Assembly: GCF_963676685.1 (NCBI RefSeq)
Contig: NC_092352.1
Coordinates: 34,224,001-34,288,000 of the forward strand
Source of the DNA: Mytilus edulis
Lineage: Eukaryota
DNA length: 64,000 nucleotides
Direction: 5' to 3'
Both the position numbers and the translations under genes were made by a program. The notes beneath the pieces are model-generated. The model searched no databases. It was not told the origin of the DNA and saw nothing but the letters and a program-made list of their open reading frames with translations. Of the stretch, positions 1-33,400 are shown piece by piece; position 1 is the first letter of the stretch, and each line of letters starts with the position of its first letter.

Positions 1-189
1 CATCTGCAAAATGTATTATATATTGTAAAAGATGAAATAGCACAAATGACCCTGCAAAAAATATCTTTTACAGTAAATAAAGCAGTAAATGTATATGACT
101 TTTCATTTTCTAATCAGCCTAATAGCCATAAGCACAGTTGAATTCCCATTCATTGAAATTTAAAATTTAGCATGTTACAAAGACCTTAC

Positions 190-18400: not shown

Positions 18401-21400
18401 CAATTCAATGGAGATCCCAATCGTAAAAAATCTCTGAAAAAATTAAACATAAACACTAATGAGTCTGATGTTCTAATTTAACTGAATTCATTTTTTAAAC
18501 CACACTAAATTTTGTTTCACACCAGTTTGACTATATGAAACATCTATATCATGTAGAAATATCTCATCAGGGCAATAGATTTTCTTCATATGCAAATTTG
18601 AACAATTTATGCCTACACATACCAAAAACTGATCTCATTTAAAATTTAACAAATAAAAGAAAAAAAAATATTATGTTTATGTATTCTTAAATTCCCAATT
18701 TGTAGGTTTTGATACCAAGTTTTACATTTTACAATCTTAAAACCTTATTCTATAAACTATTGATCTCTTCATTGATGTCTACAATACCTCAAGTCTCTAG
18801 GTGTTAGAGATTGTGATGCCAGCCTTTCAAACATAGATCTGAGTGAAGGATGGAGTGGGTGTGTCTCATCAGCTAGTGCTATATATCCATGACTCAAAAG
18901 TTCATGAGGATATCCATATTCACACATTATCTGTTGGTTCCTCTCTGTGTGTAACAGACTTTTCAATAGTTCTGCTGTATTGATTTGGAGGGCTAGGGCA
19001 GGCTATAATGGAAATAATAATTTGTGAGTAAGGTTTTGACTCATATTTATGTCAACTGGGATATAAAAGATAATAAAGTAGATGAAATTTTATGTAACAC
19101 AAGTTTGAGGCTACATAGACATTATAAAATTGAAACAAAAATGCTATATTATACTACATGATTAACCAGGTGCTCCGCAGGGCGCAGCTTTATACGACCG
19201 CAGAGGTCGAACCCTGAACAGTTGGGGAAAGTATGGACAAAACATTCAAGCGTGATACAGCTCTGAATTTGGATTGTGATCAAATTTTTGCCATTACATG
19301 GGTTTTTTTTACACAAAACAAATGTCAAGATTTTACAAATCAATTAAAGATTTCTTCTTCAAACTTTTTAAATCTAAAATTAAATAGTTGACACAGCATA
19401 GGTTTCTGACACAGAATGAATGTGGTCTAATGAACTTTTTTTTTTTTGCCTTTGAGCAATTCACTATGCTGTTGAATATTAATCACCTCAAAAAAATGTT
19501 TGAAGAAATTTTGTTTTTATTTATGAAATCTGAAATGAGAAAAATTTAAACCCCCCCCTTTTTTTTTACATCCCCGTTTCCCTTTTTCCAAAACTGATAT
19601 CAATTCAAATTTCTAATGGAGTTTGCAACAATAACTACTCTTTTAAATACATCATAAAATATTAAAATGTAAAATAAAGTGCTTGTTATCACTGAATGGT
19701 AAAGATTGGTTGGTAGTAAAAGTGAATATACATTGTTTATTGTATAAAACAATAAAAAAAACTTCATCAGCAACATTTTATATTGGCAAATTTCCAATGA
19801 AGTTATTTACATAAAGTTATTGGCAAATAAAAATAGAAAATGACATCATAGTCATGTCTGGCAAATGTCCAACATACATTATCTAAAAACATTTTAGATA
19901 AGATAAGGAAAAAAAGCTTCATCAGCAACATTTAATATTGGCAAATTTCCAATGTAGTTATTTACATAAAGTTATTGGCAAATAAAAATAGAAAATGACA
20001 TCATAGTCATGTCTGGCAAATTTCCAACATATATTATCAACTACTATTCTATACAAAGAAAGATAACTCCAATTGAAAATTAATTGTTATTGCACAATAT
20101 TGTGCAATTAGATATTTCTTGCTATTGTGCAAAACTGTGCAATTGAAAATTTCTTGCTATTGCACAATACTTGATATGGAATCCTGATTTGGACCAATTT
20201 GAAAACTGGGCCCATAATCAAAAATCAAAGTACATATTTAGATAAAGCATATCAAATAAGCCCAAGAATTTAATTTTTGTTAAAATCAAACTTAGTTTAA
20301 TTTTGGACCCTTTGGACCTTATAATGTAGACCAATTTGAAAACTGGACCAAAAATTAAGAATCTACATACACAGTTAGATTTGGCATATCAAAGAACCCA
20401 TTTATTCAATTTTTGATGAAATCAAACAAAGTTTAATTTTGGACCCCCATTTGGACCAACTTGAAAACTAGGCCAATAATTAAAAATCTAAGTACATTTT
20501 TAAATTCAGCATATCAAAGAACCCCAAGGATTCAATTTTTGTTAAAATCAAACTAAGTTTAATTTTGGACCCTGTGGACCTTAATGTAGACCAATTTGAA
20601 AACTGGACCAAAAATTAAGAATCTACATACATAGTTAGATTCGGCATATCAATGAACCCCAATTATTCAATTTTGATGAAATCAAACAAAGTTTAATTTT
20701 GGACCCTTTGGGCCCCTTATTCTGTTGGGACCAAAACTCCCAAAATCAATACCAACCTTCCTTTTATGGTAATAAACCTTGTGTTTAAATTTCATAGATT
20801 TCTATTTACTTATACTAACGTTATGGTGCGAAAACCAAGAAAAATGCTTATTTGGGTCCCTTTTTGGCCCCTAATTCCTAAACTGTTGGGACCTAAACTC
20901 CCAAAATCAATACCAACCTTCCTTTTGTAGTCATTAACATTGTGTTTAAATTTCATTGATTTCTATTCACTTAAACTAAAGTTATTGTGCGAAAACCAAA
21001 AATAATGCTTATTTGGGCCCTTTTTTGGCCCCTAATTCCTAAACTGTTGAAACCAAAACTCCCAAAATCAATCCCAACCGTTCTTTTGTGGTCATAAACC
21101 TTGTGTCAAAATTTCATAGATTTCTATTAACTTAAACTAAAGTTATAGTGCGAAAACCAAGAAAATGCTTATTTGGGCCCTTTTTGGCCCCTAATTCCTA
21201 AACTGTTGGGACCAAAACTCCCAAAATCAATACCAACCTTCCTTTTGTAGTCATAAACCTTGTGTTAAAATTTCATAGATTTCCATTCACTTTTATTAAA
21301 GTTAGAGTGCGAAAACTAAAAGTATTCGGACGACGACGACGACGACGCCAACGTGATAGCAATATACGAAGAAAAATTTTTCAAATTTTGCGGTCGTATA

Positions 21401-24400
21401 AAAAGTTTAAGAACCAAGTCTCTGGTTTGACTCAGCTGAGGATTAAACCCCTGACTTCCATGGCTACTCTTAATGAGCTATCTTAAGATCACAGAATTAG
21501 TTTCAATACATGAAAACCAATTTAAATGGAAGTGTGTGGATACATGTACTAACATACAATATGGACATGATGGAAAAGACATGTTGCATTTTTATGTACC
21601 TGTCCTACATCAGGAGCCTGTTGTTCAGTGATTGTTATTTATTGGTATGGTTCATAAGAGTTTTGTGGTTGTTTTTTTTTTTATAGATTTGACCATTGGT
21701 TTTCCTGTTTGAATTCTTCTACACCAGTCATTTTAGGGCCCTTTATAGCTTGCTGTTTGGGGTGAGCCAAGTCTCTGTGTTGAAGGCCGTACTTTGACCT
21801 ATAATTGAAAACTTTTAATACATTGTCACTTGGATAGAGAGTTGTCTCATTGGCACTCATACCACATTTTATTCTTATGTTAAACTAACATTTATCAAGG
21901 TTTTAATCAAGTACTGACCTTTTTGTCATCATCATGTTCTATGGCAGGTAGTAGGTGGAACAAAGACAAGACAGCACCAGGATGTACAATAATTTGATCT
22001 GCACTGACATGTGATGCCTCTGGTATACTTCCTGTACTGGCCCGCTTCTGTTTGGGTGAGGACTGGGGAGAACCACTACTATCTCTATTATAAATCATTG
22101 TAAACCTCTTTAATGATGGGGAATCTGTCTTAGCTTGGCTAGATGTTGGTCTAAAATGTAGATAAAATTGAGAATGGAAATGGTGAATGTGTCAAAGAGA
22201 CAACAACTTGTTATCTATGATCTCAAACAAAGATATTTTAACTTTTGAAAGATATAATGAAATTATTTTTCTGATATTCCTATACACTTTTAAATCAGAC
22301 TGTTTAACCAATAATTATGAATTTTCAAGGTTAAACACTGCTCTTCTATTTTGGCATATTTAGCTGCAGTTTAAGGTATCAAGTCACACAGACTATCTAT
22401 AATTATTAGCAAACTAAAAACACTTACTTATCAAAGATATCCTGAGCCATGTTGTACAAGTACTTTAACATTACACAAGCAGATAACAGTGTCATGGGAA
22501 TGCCATTGTAATCCCTGTAAAAGAAAAGATTTCAGATAGGCAGAGCCTTAATTTAATTTCAAATTTCATTGTTTTTTATTTGAGCTGTGAAAATGCACTG
22601 AGCCATTGAGTGTATAAATTATTCAAATTTTAAAGTAAATTTGGATTTTATTAGATAAATACTTACCATCATAAATTCTGAGTGTAACCCCAATTGCGTC
22701 ATAGGTCAGATGGAAAATCCCAACTAAAAATAAACGTACTCTCACTGGTCCGGACATATACCCCTGTTTGCCCATATTCTTCCATTCAATTTCCTCAAGA
22801 CAGAAACATAAGGAAAGGGGATGAAGGGGAGGTGGGTGGGACCTATAATTTATGATGGTAAGTATTTATCTAATAAAATCCAAATTTACTTTAAAATTTG
22901 AATATTTTATAGCTATAAATACGTTACCATCATAAATTCTGAGTAACAGAATCTAACGTAAAGCTGAATCCCCTGTAACAGAAGAAACAGGAGGAAAGTT
23001 CAATCTTTGTGCTGAAACTATAGGTCCAAGAGAGTATAAACTTTCGGCAAAAGTAGCCATAGATTGGAGGTAGTGAGATAAAAAAGAGTTCTCATTTCTC
23101 CAGAAACCTGCAGACAGTACCTCTTCTAGAGATGCACTGTTAAACAGAGCCCAGGATGTAGAGATACCCCTAACATCATGAGCTTTAACATTAAAACTAT
23201 TTAAAAGTTCTGCCTTAGAAGAACCATAAGCTAAAGATATGCATTTGCATATCCAAGTAGAAATAGTTTTAACAGAAAGATCTGAGATTCCTTTTTTAAT
23301 AGGAATAAAGAGTCTTGAGTTAGAAACAGAACGTAAACTACACGTTCTTTCCAGATAAATAGATAGGATTCTTACTGGACATAAAAGTACAGAAATAGAA
23401 TCGCTAGGGAGTGCAGGAATCACAACTGGTTCTGCACCCTTATCTGGAATCTGATTCTTTGCCAAAAAAGCAGGATCCGTTAAAAGAGTAACAGAAGATT
23501 TATCCCTGTTAAATCGAAGGCAAGCATCAGAAATAGAGAAGGCATGGATTTCACTCCTTCTCCGTCCAGAAGCCAAAGCTAAAAGAAAACAGCATTTATA
23601 GGAAAGAAACCTTAAATCTATTGTTTCTGCTGGTTCAAAAGGAGGAAGTTTTAAAAAGGATAAAACTAGTCCAAGGTCCCACTTAGGAACTAAAGTTTTT
23701 TGTCTTGGTCTTTCAAGACTAAAACTACGAACCAAAAGAGAAATATGCTCATTGATTCCAAAATCTGGGCCACCAGAAATATGAATAGTTCTTGAGATAG
23801 CTGATCTATATCCCTTAATAGTAGAGGGACATAATCCTTTGGATTCAAAAAGAAAAACTAGAAAGTCTGCTAATTGTTGTACAGTGACTTGGAAAGGATC
23901 AATTTCCCGCTCACTACACCAATCTGAGAAGATTGACCATTTTGCATCATAGACAATGCTAGTGGAGTCTCTGACAGACTTTGTGAGATGCTTGGTTGCT
24001 CCTTCAGAAAAACCTCTCTTTCTGAGGCTAACCCTGAGAGAAGCCAGGCGTGTAGTTGAAGTTTTTCTGGATTTTGATAAAGAACCTTGCCCTTGATTTG
24101 AGACAGAAGGTCTGGTCTCAGAGGTAGAACCAGAGGACAAGCACATGATAGGCGCAGAAGGTCTGGAAACCAAGACTGTTTTGGCCATGCTGGAGCAATA
24201 ACTATGATCTTGCAATTTTCCCCTGCTATTTTCTGAAGTACTGGGGAGAGAAACCTGAAAGGAGGGAAGGCGTACCCGAACATTCCTTTCCAAGATAGGC
24301 TCATTGCGTCTACCGCAAAAGATTTTGGATCTGGAACCGGAGACACAAATGTTAGAAGTTTGTGATTGAGACTGGTCGCAAACAGATCTATCTGAGGTGA

Positions 24401-27400
24401 CCCCCAATGAAGAGTCACAGCTTTGAAAACTACTTGAAGTAGTTCCCACTCCGTGTTTACTGGAGCAAGGGATCTGGATAGAGTGTCGGCTAGAATATTG
24501 AGGTGCCCCGCAATATGTCTCACCACTAGATGAACCTGGAGTTGAAAACACAGAAGGAGAATGTCTCTGGCTATCTGATAAAGAGAAGGTGAATGAGTTC
24601 CTCCCTGATTCTTGAGATAAGCTACAACTGTTGTGTTGTCCGTGGCCAGAATGACAGACTGATTCTTTAGAGACATTTGGAAATGATTCAGTGCAAACAG
24701 AACTGCTTTCATTTCCAATACATTGATATGCTCTTCCAAAAGATCTGGACTCCAGACTCCCGAGATTGTAAGCCCCTCCAGATATGCTCCCCAACCGAGG
24801 GTGGAGGCATCTGTGAATAATGTTAGACTGGGAACTTGAGGGGACAGACATAGGCCCCTCATTACATTTTCCCGTACTAACCACCATTGAAGGTGTGGAA
24901 ATAAAGGCTGAGTGATTGGAATCAATGCTTCCCATTCTTGTGAAGCTGCAATCCATAACTTGTGCAGATAAAACTGAAGCGGACGAATGTGAAGTCGTCC
25001 CAATGGAATTACATCTGCCAGAGAGTTCAATAGACCCAGAAGTTGCAAGAATTGACGTGCTGTGACTGATTGAACCGTCAGGAATAAAAGTATTTTCTGA
25101 CATAGTTTTGTAAATTTCTCCTCTGGTGGGAGGACTAGGCCTACACTGGTTAGGAAATGTTCTCCCAGGAAAACAAAGTCTTGAGACGGAATTATCTCTG
25201 ACTTTTTCCAAGAGATAAGGAAGCCTAGGGACAGAAAACAATTGATGACCAAGTCTGTCTGAACCCTCAATTTGATTGGGCAAAATTCCTTGAGAAGGGA
25301 ATCGTCCAGATAGGAATGAATCTGAATAGACAGGGAATGTAGGTGAGCTATAGCTGCCTGCATGATTTTGGTAAAAGCCAAAGGGGCTGTAGACAGGCCA
25401 AAAGGGAGAGCCTTGAACTGGAAAACTTTGTTGTTCCAAACGAAGCGAAGGTATTTCCTGTAAGTTTTGGAAATGGGAATGTGGAAATACGCGTCTGAAA
25501 GATCCAGAGAAGTAGTCCACATTCCTGGAAGGATTGAAGCCCTGATGGATCTGTTTGTTTCCATTTTGAAGTGGGGAACAATAAGAAATTTGTTCAGAAT
25601 AGATAGGTCTATGACTGGCCTCATTCCTCCAGTCTTCTTTGGAACCAGAAAAAGACGGGAATAAAATCCCGGAGACAGAGTTAAGATCGACACCTCCTCT
25701 ATTGCAGCTTTTTGTAACATAGTGTCCACTTCTACTGATAGAAGTTGACACTTGACTGGGTCTTGTGTATGAGACAAACTTATTGGAACTGCAGATAGAG
25801 GAGGTGGGTTCTTGAACTGAAGTGTTAATCCCCCTCGAATTATTGACAGCACATAACAGTCTGAGGTAATTTTCTTCCACTGATTTAGGAAAAAACTTAA
25901 CCTCCCCCCTACTGGTATTGATTTTTGAGGAACTTGTTGTAAATTTTCCCCTGGGGAAGCTGTCAATAACGTACGAGGGGGCAAGAACCTAGGTACTAGA
26001 CCCAGGTTTCTTGGAACCCTTAAAACCACCAGAAGGCTTACCTGAGCTTTTTCCTGAGTTATTGGGTTTGTTCTGCGGTTTGCCGTAGTTATTCTTCCTT
26101 TTCTTAGCAGAAGAAGGGGGACCACCTGAAGCAGAAGTACTATTAGAACTAGATGTAGCATTAACCGACCTCTTGCCATTAGTAACTTGTACACTAACTT
26201 TGACTGGAGGAGGGTTTTTGCTGAGTTCCTCTTGAACCCGCTGTAAGGGTAAACCAAACATCTTGTCAGAGAGTGGAGATTTCAGTAAAGAATCTTTCAA
26301 AGGCTCAGCGATAGAAATGTTTTCAAGAAACTCTGCTCTTTTAGATAGGGTGCAATTAGCAATAGAACCCATTAAAAGCAACTGAGATGAACCTAAAGCT
26401 TTATCCAGTTGAAGTAAGAAGGATCGTACTTCTGCTGGAACAACCGAATCTTCGCTGTTAAGCAAATGTCCGGTTGCAGCTAGAAAATGTTCGGCTGTGC
26501 CAAGAACTTGAGAAGCACTACGAAGGAGATTCTCAGTCTTTGACCAAACAGGTTGAGTGAGACGAAGACCATCTACTGGCTTTTTTCCCAATAAAGATGA
26601 CATAGATTTGTCACAAGTGGGAACAAGTCTACCCAGTGAAGAATCAAAGATATCAAAATCCTTGTACTTAACCTGATCAGAAAAGGATGACATTCCAAAT
26701 CCTGAGATATTGTTATTAGCAACCTTTTCACTAGCAGAATTAGCGATACCTTCATTAATAAATTGTAAAGCAAAAGTCATATGGCCAGATTCAGGAAAAG
26801 AATTGTGAGAAGTAACAGTATCCTGAGAAATACCACAGGAAGCTTCAAAAGTTGAAGAAGGTTTCTTCGGCTTGGAAGGAGAGAGAAAAGGGATATGTGC
26901 TTCATCCCTCATCAAGGTATACACCTTATCCCTAAGATCCTTCAAGGAAGGAGGATCCTCAGTCTCCTTGGTGGGAGGTTGTTGAGCTGACTTAGAAGAA
27001 GGCTCAGGGGCCGTCTTCGATACCTTGGGAGAAGAAGAACTTTCAACATCCTCATCAGTGAGGAAAGCCCTTTCATGACTCCCAGGGGAAACAGAAAGCT
27101 CGTCATCCTCCCTCTCATCACATTCTACAGACTTAGCTGGAGAAGGTTGATGAGAAGAAACTCTATTTTCCAGTAGAGTCATACGACTGGATAGAGTACT
27201 AAATTCAGCCTTGAAAGACTCACCAAAGTCTAAAAGTAACTTCTGTAAACCATCCAAAGGTGATGCATGATCAGAAACCCGAGTACCATGAGAAGAACTA
27301 GAAGCTTGAGAGTCAGGTACGGTGGTAGAAGGAGCTACTGCAGAAGTCAAAGATACTGCTACGGGTAGAGCAGGAGCTAAAGGTGGTGCAGTAGCTACCC

Positions 27401-30400
27401 CAGAAGGGGGACCATAGAAATTGTCCCTATAAGGCCAAAAACCAGGTTGGTTTGGCATAAACCCACCATAAGGGTAAGACTGTGGCCAAGGTGGCTGAGA
27501 CCATGAGGGTAAAGGTTGTGTGCCCGTGTTGGGAAGCATATACCCACAATAGGATAATGGGGGTCTAGAACCTGGCAAGTTCAAGCCCATAGCTGTACCT
27601 GGGACAGAACTAATAGTACCCGCTGAATTAACAGACCTAGATAAAGTATGAGTCACCGAAGTTGACGTAGGTACCCCCCCAAAATGCATGGCCGAACCTT
27701 GTGAAAGGGTCGGATAGGTAGCAATACCAGACACCGTTGTCGAAACTCCGGTCAATGTACTGGTAGTTTGGGGGGGACTTAAAGGTAGTGACCCATCTAA
27801 GAGATAGTCCGAACCAGGAATACTTACATACGGACTATTCAAATTAAAGTCCATAATAAATTTTACTTTAGTCAAAAACACAAATAATTTGTTTAGAAAT
27901 TTAAACAAAACAAGGGAATATATTTCCAATAAAATACACAATATATATGAAAAGCAATTAAGCTATTCAAAAAACTAAACACTTCTCTGTTGAATCTGTA
28001 AAACTTGATGTGCACGTGTGACCGATGTCGCAGATGGAAATTGAATGGAAGAATATGGGCAAACAGGGGTATATGTCCGGACCAGTGAGAGTACGTTTAT
28101 TTTTAGTTGGGATTTTCCATCTGACCTATGACGCAATTGGGGTTACACTCAGAATTTATGATGGTAACGTATTTATAGCTATAAAATTTATAAAGTTGCC
28201 ATGATAATGTCTGTATACAAGAATGTTTGTACCATTTTATCAGGAAAAGTTGTTTGATTGGTGGCAAAGTTAACAGGTACAAAAAATAATAATGTATTAA
28301 ATGTATCTAAAATCTTGTAAGTGAATCAAATTACTGATCAAGTATAAAAGTAAAATATAGTTGGTCTTTGGTGGAGAGTTATCTCATTTGCAATCATACA
28401 ACTACTTCCCATTTCTATAATTAGGTACCTTATTAAATATGAATGGGTTGTGGGTGTGAAAAAGATGCATCCCAACCCTCCATTTTTTTTCTTTCAGGAA
28501 CAGCCAATAAAATTAAAACTGTAGGAAATCTTTAATCCATAACCCACAACGCTTGATTATGTGTGCAACATTGATGTGATATAACCCCTAACATGATTCT
28601 AAAATACCCCTAATCATAAGATACGGACTTAATAATTAAATACTTACTTAGTTTCTTTAGTATTTACAAATACATCTTCAAACAGTAGCTTTTGTTCTTC
28701 TGCTTCCGTCACTTCACCAGATGGTTGTATATCTATTGTGGAGGAGAAACAACCTAGTAATCTTACTGCTTCTGTCAGACTATCATATCTTACCTGTTAT
28801 AAAATAAAATGTAAAAATAATGTATAATACATTTTATGATTTCAATTATGTCAAATCAAACTAAAAAATTTAGAACACCAAAATTGACAAAATGTTTGTG
28901 TCATACCAGCCCTAGTGGTCATCTTGATTAAATTGCCACAGACTGAAAAATGTTAAGACAATAGGGTATAATATATTATGTAAGTTTGACAATATAGATG
29001 ACAACTTCGACAATGCAAGTCAACAAAGTGTAAGCTCACATAGTTAAGCAGTTGTATAAAGCTGATGTCCAGAATCATTATTGTTGTATTTGTCACACAG
29101 TTAGAGTACTGAAAAAACTGTCTTCAGCTTACTTAATACATACCTCAGTCTCAAAGAATTTGGCATTAGCAGGTTCATATCTCATGGCTACAGTTATAGT
29201 ACTGAACACTGTCTTTAACATACTTAATACATCTACTCTTCTTACTGAAACATTCAATAATCCAATCATATAAGACAAGGAAATAAACATTATAGTTTAT
29301 CTTAGTTTATACTTAGTAAGTGTAAATCCTCATGAATTTAATAACCACACCAAACGTTTATGTATCGTACTCAGAAAATAAAATTTGAATAAATATCCAC
29401 TTTTACAATATATATATAAAAGAACAAGAATGTGTCCCCAGTACACGGATGCCCCATCCGCACTATCATTTTCTATGTTCAGTGGACCGTGAAAATGGGG
29501 TTAAATCTCTAATTTGGAATTAAAATTAGAAAGATCATATCATACAGAACATATATACTAAGTTTCAAGTTGATTGGAATTCAACTTCATCAAAAACTAC
29601 CTCGACCAAAAACTTTAACCTGACATGGGACAGACGGACGAACGGACGAACGAACGAACAGACGGAAGCACAGACCAGAAAACATAATGCCCATAAATGG
29701 GGCATAAAAAGGGAAACCTTAACTTTAACTGAGATTTACCTTGATCCCAGGGTACTTTAGGTGGATCACATAAACAACCTTCCATAGATACTAAGACAGA
29801 CATGACATACACAAAGCCTCCTACTCTACGGAATACTGTTCTTGATCTGTGGCTTTCTCGCAATACATTCAGCAGTGCCTAAAACATAATGTTTTTGGTG
29901 AAACAATTACAATAGAATTACTGTAAAAATTATAATTTTGAGATATCTCAGATTTGTAAAAAAAAAATATAGTTCAGTGTTTCAGTTTAAGAAATTATAA
30001 CAAAAGATAGACATGTAAACATCAATATCAGTGCCTTTTTGCTGAGAATAAGTGGGAAATAAATACAGAAGACAGGAATATATTTCTTTGATTTAGAATA
30101 GTATTTTTTTTTATAGAAAATCTTATTCAAATGAAATCTTCTATATTTTTCCTTGCTTTTATTCTATACATTGCGGGAATTTCTCGCTACATTGAAGACT
30201 TGTTGGTGACCTTCTGCTGTTGTTTTTTTCTATGGTCGGGTTGTTGTCTCTTTGGCACATTCCCCATTTCCATTCTCAATTTTATTATTGGATATCTTTT
30301 TTTAAAAGTTACCTTTAGAATATGTGTTTTAAGTTGAAGTGACAACACTGGTGAAGAATGCATCAGACCAAGTAATGTTCCCATGTCATCATCACCACCA

Positions 30401-33400
30401 GGGGACAGCACTAGTTGTTGTACAATATTTAAAGTCTGATGACGACACTGCTTATGTGGAATCATGGTATGAGCACAGCGAGCACCACCACACTCTCTAA
30501 AAACATCTGAAATTCAATAAAGTTGAAATAAAATAAGTCATCTTATAAAGCAGTTCAAGAACATTATAATCTAAAGACCAGATGCTCCGCAGGGCGCAGC
30601 TTTATACGACCGCATAGGTTGAACCCTGAACGGTTGGGGCAAGTATGGACACAACATTCAAGCTGGATTCAGCTCTAAATTTGGATTGTGATTAAATAGT
30701 TGACACAGCATAGGTTTTGGACACAGAATGAATGTGGTCTAATGAACTTAAAATATTTTTTTTGTCTTTGAGCAATCACTATGCTGTTGAATATTAATCC
30801 TCTCAAAAAAATGTTTGAAGAAATTTATTTATGAAATCTGAAATGAGAAAAATTAAACCCCCCCCCCCCCCCCACCATTTTTTTCACATCCCCCTTTCCC
30901 TTTATTCAAAACTGATCTCAAAATTCAAATTTCTAATGGAGTTTGCAACAATAACTACTCATTTAAATACATCATAAAATATTAAAATGTAACAAAAAGT
31001 GCTTGTTATCACTGAATGGTAAAGAGTGTTTTAATTTATCAGTTGGTAGTAAAAGTGAATATCCATTGTGCATTGTATAAAACAATGATTTAAGTTGATT
31101 CAACTACTATTCTGGACAAAGAAAGATAACTCCAATCAATTGAAAATTTCTTGCTATTGCACAATATTGTGCAATTAGATATTTCTTGCTATTGCGCAAT
31201 ACTGTGCAATTGAAAATATTTGCTATTGCACAATACTGTGCAATTGAAGATTTCTTGCTATTGCACAATACTGTGCAATTGAACATTTTTTGCTATTGCA
31301 CAATACTGTGCAATTGAAGATTTCTTGCTATTGCTGAATACTGTACAATTGAAAATTTCTTGCTATTGCACAATACTTAATATAATAATTTTGGATCCTG
31401 ATTTGAACCAACTTGAAAACTGGGCCCATAATCAAAAATCTAAGTACATGATTAAATTCAGCATATCAAAAAAGCCAAAGAATTCAATTATTATTAAAAT
31501 CAAACTTAGTTTAATTTTGGACCCTTTGGTATTTAATGTAGACCAATTTGAAAACGGGACTTAAAATTAAGAATCTACATACACAGTTAGATTTGGTATA
31601 TCAAAGAACCCCAATTATTCAATTTTTGATGAAATCAAACAAAGTTTAATTTTGGACCCCGATTTGGACCAACTTGAAAACTGGGCCAATAATCAAAAAT
31701 CTAAGTACATTTTTAGATTCAGCATATCAAAGAACCCCAAGGATTCAATTTTTGTTAAAATCAAACTAAGTTTAATTTTGGACCCTTTGGACCTTAATGT
31801 AGACCAATTGGAAAACGGGACCAAAAATTAAGAATCTACATACACAGTTAGATCCGGCATATCAAAGAACCCCAATTATTCAATTTTTTATGAAATCAAA
31901 CAAAGTTCAATTTTGGACCCTTTGGGCCTCTTATTCCTAAAAACCTGTTTGGACCAAAACTCCCAAAATCAAACCCAACCTTCCTTTTATGGTCATAAAC
32001 CTTGTGTTTAAATTTCAAAGATTTCTATTTACTTATACTAAAGTTATGGTGCGAAAACCAAGAATAATGCTTACTTGGGCCCCTTTTTGGCCCCTAATTC
32101 CTAAACTGTTCAGACCTCAACTCCCAAAATCAATCCCAACCTTCCTTTTGTGGTCATAAACCTTGTGTTTAAATTTCATTGATTTCTCTTCACTTATACT
32201 AAAGTTATTGTGCGAAAACCAAGATTAATGCTTATTTGGGCCCTTTTTTGGCCCCTTATTCCTAAACTGTTCAGACCTCAACTCCCAAAATCAATCCCAA
32301 CCTTCCTTTTGTGGTCATAAACCTTGTGTCAAAATTTCATAGATTTCGATTTACTTAAACTAAAGTTATAGTGCGAAAACCAAGAAAATGCTTATTTGGG
32401 CCCTTTTTGGCCCCTAATTCCTAAAATTTTGGGACCAAAACTCCCAAAATTAATCCCAACCTTCCTTTTGTGGTTATAAACCTTGTGTTAAAATTTCATA
32501 GATTTCTATTCATTTTTACTTAAATTAGAGTGCGAAAAACTAAAAGTATTCGGACAACGACGACGACGCAGGACGACTACGCCAACGTGATAGCAATATA
32601 CGACGAAAAATTAAAATTTTTGCGGTCGTATAAAAAGAAAATCAATATTAGAAAACAGAGCTTTTTTTATTTACACAAACAGCTATAATCAATATAATTA
32701 CTTACACATGTGACTTGTCATCACTTTTGAACATGAATGGCATTCTCTGACAATATAAAGTAGTGTTAATTTTAAAAGTTTTGTTTCAAATCAGAAATAT
32801 AACTATAACATTAAGCACTGAAATATCTAAGACTTAGTTAATTCAATGAAACTGATTAGCCCTACACGAAGTAAACAAATATGCAAAGCTTTCTTTTGTT
32901 CAGTGTTTTGAAGATGAAAGTATTAATAAAGGTTGTGACTTTTTTCATAACATTAAAATAAATGTTTAGCCATGACTCACCAGCATTTTTACTATTTCCA
33001 CTCAGAAGAGCTGTCAGACACTCCATGACCAGAGATCCTAATTCTTGTTGGTCAGCATCAATTGGCTCTGATTCTACTATAATTAAATACAATTATTAAT
33101 GTTCGTTGTATAATAGTTGTATAGTAATCAAGAGTTATTTTAGCATGTATTACTTGTTGATTATTTTGCATAATTTAATTTGTCTAATCCATATTCTTTG
33201 GAATATAATGGCTTTTATTGTCCTACTGTTTTATACAAAAATAAAATAATAAATTCTGATCATAAGATGGTTTGCAAAGGATTATTTGTAAAGATATAAA
33301 ATTTTGCCTTTATTGATTTTATTCATCAAATACACATTTTAATCATTACAGAAATTAAATTTAATTCTTACGCATGGGTAATAGAATGCTCTTGTTGTGT

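Follow-up and report, generated by a model that had tools for sequence, protein, structure and literature searches.

A gag-like gene and a tyrosine recombinase (YR) gene share one reading frame, split by a single UAG, in a DIRS1-like retrotransposon of Mytilus edulis, and comparison across 68 families suggests that occasional readthrough of this stop yields a 1633-aa Gag-linker-YR protein (a probability of about 0.78 in our estimate), probably with the help of a predicted long-range stem in the RNA. This reading is favored because the stop is single and in frame, TAA is avoided at this place, the stop contexts are leaky, the linker behind the stop is open, and the YR frame has no conserved AUG. 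The gag-stop-YR junction is real and conserved; the recoding proposed for it is of a known kind, apparently new both for DIRS elements and for a recombinase. In the portions consulted of the literature searched (PMC3266345, PMC7192593, PMC3783388, PMC5633606, PMC9210276, and PMC6681497 among it, and further PMC2685390, PMC3537659, and PMC8547959), there is no description of readthrough in DIRS elements, and the first 300,000 characters of PMC5009743 do not mention DIRS. The same portions offer no explanation of how the overlapping, AUG-less pol and YR frames of these elements are translated, for which a leaky stop is a concrete answer.

The window (the whole stretch analyzed, 64,000 nucleotides of contig NC_092352.1, positions 34,224,001 to 34,288,000) holds a full-length copy of the element (Table 1). 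The element is DIRS1-like, because inverted terminal repeats (ITRs), together with an internal complementary region (ICR), bound its 5.57 kb; it also has an ORF for reverse transcriptase (RT) as well as RNase H and, instead of an integrase, a YR overlapping pol. A 132-nt arm of the left repeat (28036-28167) has 100% complementarity to 22663-22794. This young family has ~23 near-full-length matches at 99-100% identity in genome G000, the window copy counted in. Pol matches Pfam RVT_1 (E 1e-18), whereas RT_RNaseH is weak and the RNase H families fall below the cut-off; the methyltransferase (MT)-like motifs DLFA and FPPF were read directly, Pfam giving no methyltransferase match, and the conserved part of pol starts at PVGGRL near 25915. 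ORF1 matches no Pfam family, and its label "gag" reflects position only. The R, HxxR, W, and Y motifs, which we take to define a tyrosine recombinase, were read by eye in the window YR frame. Matches to Phage_int_SAM_5 in this frame (E 0.008) and to Phage_integrase in the homologue L055 (E 6e-4) are both under the curated Pfam cut-offs. Searches of viral contigs found no relatives, the PDB search gave no match, and the Rfam search nothing credible. Among the best 120 of 309 protein matches, identical proteins are annotated in M. edulis and M. galloprovincialis, and at least 100 entries have 900-999 aa. An M. edulis entry for the YR frame of family C, a sister family, bears the label "serine-rich adhesin for platelets-like" (P0032), likely a mis-annotation stemming from the Ser-rich linker. 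Tandem-repeat blocks with units of 161, 135, and 35 nt (window 19165-21341 and 30577-32545) are duplicated ~11 kb apart and flank the element.

Table 1. Features of the element in window coordinates; offsets (+) count from the gag stop.
Feature	Position	Strand	Basis or remark
DIRS1-like retrotransposon, full-length	22616..28187	-	~5.57 kb; both ends ATT
Left inverted terminal repeat	28036..28187	-	Inverted-repeat and copy comparison
Right inverted terminal repeat	22645..22794	-	Inverted-repeat and copy comparison
Internal complementary region (ICR)	22834..22944	-	Complementary to both element ends; AAT junction; inverted repeats I2, I4
Gag-like ORF1	25989..27854	-	621 aa, ATG 27854; basic K/G/S-rich tail; stop TAG
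Single in-frame gag stop, predicted readthrough site	25989..25991	-	Context ACC-UAG-GUU
YR frame	22953..25988	-	1011 codons: Ser-rich linker of ~630 codons that overlaps pol, followed by a SAM-like and tyrosine-recombinase region
Pol frame	23870..26281	-	803 codons, +1 relative to gag, overlaps gag and YR; RT, RNase H, MT-like
Predicted stem helix 1, 5' strand CCCCCUCG (+8..+15)	25974..25981	-	Pairing probability ~1.0 in 175- and 220-nt folds, four families
Predicted stem helix 1, 3' strand CGAGGGGG (+152..+159; pol codons IRGG)	25830..25837	-	Folds and alignment
Predicted stem helix 2, 5' strand (+19..+30)	25959..25970	-	Folds and alignment
Predicted stem helix 2, 3' strand (+139..+150)	25839..25850	-	Two both-sided changes, family A versus B
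Splice-donor-like CAG/GTAAGC	26036..26044	-	50 nt upstream of gag stop; consensus score

The layout described in the first-pass annotation is borne out at every point where it could be read from the DNA. The TAG at 25991-25989 that ends gag is in the same register as the 1011-codon stop-free frame 25988-22953, 36 stop-free codons lead to the GTG at 25880, and the first ATG (25103) comes 295 codons past the stop, so that the fusion would count 621+1+1011 = 1633 aa. The short motifs after the stop are present as well: GUUCUUGC, CCCCU (+9..13), CUUCCCC (+30..36), AGGGG (+37..41), and GGGGGAG (+81..87). The family alignment suggested there finds the TAG kept in 30/30 loci of the window family (family A hereafter). 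The -1 frame of window pol has no stop in 540 codons, against a mean of 25 and a minimum of 15 in 200 synonymous shuffles, and hence the open YR frame is not a matter of chance. Some odd loci were considered and rejected. The 1418-codon gag-YR frame of L079 is a single-copy frameshift that L123 and L124 of the same family lack; a TGA-to-TGG change in L075 occurs in one decayed copy only; and an 845-nt deletion in L015, a candidate spliced and re-inserted copy, mismatches any predicted intron.

The 100 loci fetched from the element's own genome fall into 30 families, with three architectures. In class I, gag is in the YR frame with one stop between them, and YR stays open for ~940-1010 codons in intact copies (13/30 families). 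In class II gag lies in the third frame and YR is short, ~400 codons (11/30), and in class III gag lies in the third frame and YR is long (4/30); the remaining two families, L092 and L095, were excluded as too broken to class. A further 20 own-genome loci added nothing beyond old copies from families A, B, and C. In metagenomes, 67 of the 80 best loci pass the strict class I rule, a share inflated because these loci are the ones closest to the window pol; another 8 have the same junction in broken or cut-off form, and 2 are class III. In the other three (L145, L160, and L163) it is pol that continues the gag frame past the stop (TAA-C, TAG-CGG, and TGA-C), and YR opens in the -1 frame before it. 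Clustering at 80% pol identity gives 68 class I families. In the comparison with relatives that the first-pass annotation had proposed, 68 families share the single in-frame stop; counting against the readthrough reading, gag is outside the YR frame in 15 of the 30 own-genome families. From the gag stop to the conserved pol start, the third frame of class I has 88 stops and the YR frame 0 in 1580 codons, although the rule used for selection imposes this zero. Across pol, it has 0 stops where synonymous shuffling predicts 10-32 (nine long-overlap elements tested), and in class II the same frame has 62-69 (three elements tested).

If YR started independently, at the GUG at 25880 or a later AUG, by reinitiation, or from an internal promoter, the frame shared with gag would be merely historical. 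Sister families B and C do have an AUG where the window has this GUG, and the Candida albicans retrotransposon Tca2 has a minor promoter at its junction (PMC2194720, in the part consulted). However, the first YR AUG lies anywhere from 5 to 542 codons past the gag stop (one truncated locus has none), and the commonest AUG column is filled in only 22/54 families and coincides with a Trp codon of pol. Since AUGs in the YR frame come from Trp or Cys codons of pol, this column is a by-product of pol. Ahead of this column, too, the linker contains no stop, and an independent start gives no reason for the bias in stop codons described below. We regard such a start as highly unlikely.

The identity of the stop is the second line of evidence for readthrough. 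Among the 68 class I families (pol <80% identical) there are 46 TGA, 21 TAG, and a single TAA, where local base composition predicts 24 TAA. The contexts TGA-C, TAG-C, and TAG-G account for 58/68 gag stops, where composition predicts 17, and for 35/120 control stops, namely 1/14 gag stops out of the YR frame, 24/63 pol stops, and 10/43 YR stops. Because the families are kin, Fisher p-values overstate the evidence. Thinning to <50% identity leaves 26/31 families in leaky contexts, with one TAA. A quick tree shows several swaps between TAG and TGA, of which at least three are forced. That these swaps recur while TAA stays out is difficult to put down to shared descent only. UGA-C is found in 37/68 families, nine of them with UGA-CUA, and UGA-CUA/CUC is frequent. 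UGA-CUA/CGG and UAG-G are the type II and type III readthrough contexts, respectively (PMC3159437, in the part consulted); the window family, with UAG-GUU, has the latter and lacks the former.

MuLV gag-pol readthrough uses UAG-G, an 8-nt spacer, and a pseudoknot. On this model the first-pass annotation had inferred a Gag-YR fusion stimulated by an H-type pseudoknot, and the two halves of the proposal fare differently: the 68-family comparison supports the fusion well, and the pseudoknot is unsupported. Its stems (CCCCU with AGGGG at +37, CUUCCCC with GGGGGAG at +81) can both pair in family A, stem 2 shows one both-sided change in L134, and it turns up as an inner helix of the long fold of family A. 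Stem 1, by contrast, breaks in sister families, with 5/5 pairs in A, 1/5 in B, and 4/5 in L134; over four families 65% of its cells are paired, a value equalled by 250/500 shuffles, so that the suggested check for covarying stems finds it not conserved. The loops measure 16 and ~39 nt, hence the pseudoknot is not compact. Its energy is poor, roughly -9 kcal/mol (with stem 2 two positions off register and a general-knowledge penalty value), and nested folds are far more stable, at -24 kcal/mol over 100 nt and -58 over 173 nt. Finally, a much more stable long stem competes for CCCCU, whose predicted partner is a distant AGGGG at +154..158. Neither the family comparison nor the folds give a compact conserved H-type pseudoknot 8 nt past the stop, and we hold readthrough driven by one to be most improbable. 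A different stem, seen in the 100-nt fold and joining +4..18 to the G-run of VGGR, was also rejected: 92.6% of its cells are paired, but its z is only -1 and it is gone in windows of at least 175 nt.

The long stem is common to four families. In A, B, L134, and C alike, helix 1 is predicted with a probability close to 1, the second helix of C being shifted. The stem window folds at -58.4 kcal/mol (z -5.26; 0/200 shuffles as good), and z ranges from -4.6 to -7.1 for B, C, L134, L135, L137, and L147. Two other windows of the element also fold strongly, at ~25650-25820 (+170; z -5.1) and at ~23100-23270 near the 3' end (z -6.5), hence the stop is not the only place where the RNA folds strongly. 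In the four-family alignment 83.5% of the stem cells pair (96.8% for helix 1), against 44-56% when the partners are slid, and there are three both-sided changes overall. The covariation is moderate only, 11-44/500 shuffles of the four sequences reaching the observed value and 321/500 doing so on pair types, and its reading is limited by the doubly coding 3' strand. Between A and B, 17/17 positions are identical at +5..21 and 22/51 at +22..72. The predicted stem has the traits of an extended 3' stem-loop: a start 7-12 nt past the stop, kept strands, a variable loop, and compensatory changes.

More distant families (L135, L137/L147, L148) have a different post-stop sequence that is complementary to the same pol codons. 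By a strict test, in which the post-stop strand must pair with these codons better than every control window of the same pol, 9/68 class I families are positive, eight of them independent (L207 repeats L147) and with five different strand sequences; 6 of the 14 TAG-G families pass. The other 59/68 class I families lack the stem by this test, as do all 14 families of other architectures, and over all families, pairing at long range is no more frequent behind the stop (18/68) than in internal windows (29/135). Since so few families pass and there is no general enrichment, the stem is best described as a lineage feature, not a rule. We think it somewhat favored that the predicted stem promotes readthrough where it occurs.

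The most serious rival is splicing, which could also join gag to YR if the donor at 26041 were used with an in-phase acceptor at 25817 or 24575 and the stop were thereby removed; in a variant, a 130-nt intron (26041 to 25912) would lead to Gag-Pol. In family A this donor reaches 7-8 bits (splice-site weights are general-knowledge values), that of family C overlaps its stop, and gag-phase-1 donors lie at most 60 nt upstream of the stop in 18/68 families, compared with 5-9 in windows further upstream. Automatic Mytilus gene models fit the donor, P0037 joining 26043 to 25912 and P0011 being Gag-YR minus 75 codons, and short-YR families have donor plus acceptor motifs. However, these models disagree between copies, and the longer of 15 checked entries are inconsistent spliced models. 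Sister families B and L134 have no donor near the stop; Gly-Lys codons alone create the donor motif, and any pol codon ending in AG is an in-phase acceptor. Four sequencing runs, none of them recorded as RNA, were compared (X1, X7, X21, and X24, the last uninformative with 0 reads). Contigs of X1 and X7, guessed to be RNA, cross the junction unspliced (22916-28010 and 22847-27955) with no joint listed, though a rare splice would escape them because contigs drop rare forms. Splicing leaves the avoidance of TAA, the leaky contexts, and the stop-free linker unexplained, and we consider it an unlikely route to YR.

The same runs hold some other signals. X21 has 352 short-insert reads over 22934-28117, mostly of the sense strand and with a peak over pol at 24470-25430, possibly piRNA-like silencing. 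A 514-nt contig of X1, at depth 183, shares the 5' region of the element (27981-28010) up to 27981 and then diverges; it may stem from an abundant non-autonomous derivative or be a chimeric RNA. In the DNA itself, a strong acceptor-like site at 22972, six codons ahead of the YR stop, is kept in A and B and found at the matching place in L032; its phase agrees with that of the gag donor, and a spliced RNA coding for gag only could result.

If readthrough is the route, most ribosomes would stop at the UAG and release Gag, and a minority would insert an amino acid there, the stem of +8..+30 with +139..+159 slowing termination. These ribosomes would then cross the ~630-codon Ser-rich linker, in the -1 frame over pol, and end in the recombinase, and the fusion would carry few recombinase molecules into Gag particles. 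One would then expect a Gag-recombinase protein of ~1600 aa, the ~600 codons kept open under pol would be explained, and annotations that start YR at an internal AUG or GUG would be truncated. A widespread group of animal retrotransposons would join the users of readthrough, with natural UAG/UGA swaps and covarying stems. Pol, in the +1 frame, would need a separate route.

That need opens another reading of the same signals, in which the weak stop and the stem mainly drive an antizyme-like +1 frameshift into pol, YR readthrough being a side product or absent. Pol is indeed in +1 and without a conserved AUG (44/68 families have any AUG before VGG), and at weak stops frameshifting is in competition with readthrough (PMC9841425, in the part consulted). 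Influenza PA-X and amalgaviruses use UUU_CGN as a +1 motif (PMC5052127, likewise in part), and it is found in the gag tail with the +1 frame open in 26/68 class I families (9/13 in the own genome), in 3/4 class III, and in 0/10 class II families, and 30/39 gag-tail Phe-Arg pairs are TTT_CGN; the motif is absent from the window clade. Against this reading, the clade varies in the codon ahead of the stop (ACC, TCC, AAA, AAG, TCC), UGA-C is retained in 22 of the 26 families that have UUU_CGN upstream, and the open YR frame stays unexplained. A frameshift can, besides, coexist with readthrough. That it takes the place of readthrough into YR seems very unlikely.

Nine families (L048, L049, L052, L055, L057, L065, L071, L074, and L076) have UUU_CGN 24-138 nt upstream of the gag stop and a donor-like AAG/GTRAG 7-16 nt past it. 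An in-frame XXXYYYZ heptamer lies within the overlap open in -1 in every one of the 11 class II and 4 class III families. Class II also shows a donor-like motif after the gag stop (8/10) and, at the opening of the YR frame, an acceptor-like AG (7/8), and its sequences suggest frameshift plus splicing as the route to YR. In L094, L098, L100, L105, L115, L116, and L118 of this class, the -1 slippery heptamer lies ahead of the gag stop, the donor-like motif (pol phase 0) past it, and the acceptor-like AG at FPPF-S. A broader proposal, to which we give even odds, is that DIRS elements use a single RNA to make YR and Pol alike as fusions to Gag, by way of a recoding hub where gag ends. Under the main layout, readthrough (at UGA-C, or at UAG-G plus the long stem) would give Gag-YR and a +1 shift at UUU_CGN would give Gag-Pol; other lineages would swap these, with -1 slippery sites for Pol and a +1 shift or splice for YR, or with readthrough for Pol. 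The long pol/YR overlap would then be explained as a translated tether.

The window element resembles the DIRS1-like elements described in PMC3266345 and PMC7192593 in its ITRs, ICR, ATT ends, gag, RT-RH-MT, and YR genes, and long pol-YR overlap. The portions of these accounts consulted describe three ORFs and the overlap, and contain neither an in-frame gag-stop-YR arrangement nor the translation of YR. Tca2 is a retrotransposon that also has an in-frame stop after gag (gag-UGA-pol) and a predicted 3' structure, but it is not a YR element, and its junction alone, with a predicted pseudoknot, gave no readthrough in yeast reporters, a warning for such junctions (PMC2194720, in the part consulted). 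With MuLV, the window element shares a UAG-G ending gag, a structure ~8 nt downstream, and, as proposed here, a low-ratio Gag fusion of an enzyme. In contrast to MuLV, there is no compact pseudoknot, the frame read through is YR, with pol in +1, and the spacer is pyrimidine-rich, that of MuLV being purine-rich (after a reference title within PMC3159437). The readthrough signals of alphaviruses, furoviruses, and Drosophila kelch have a 7-12-nt spacer, stem strands 100-270 nt apart, and a variable loop (PMC3159437, Firth et al. 2011, in the part consulted). The element has a spacer and a predicted long-loop stem of this kind, and most relatives have UGA-C contexts. The differences are that the window element has a UAG-G stop, a ~20-bp stem in two helices, a region read in two frames, and a recombinase as product, its readthrough function being predicted. 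The modeled geometry of the stem matches these extended stem-loops rather than the compact pseudoknot of MuLV.
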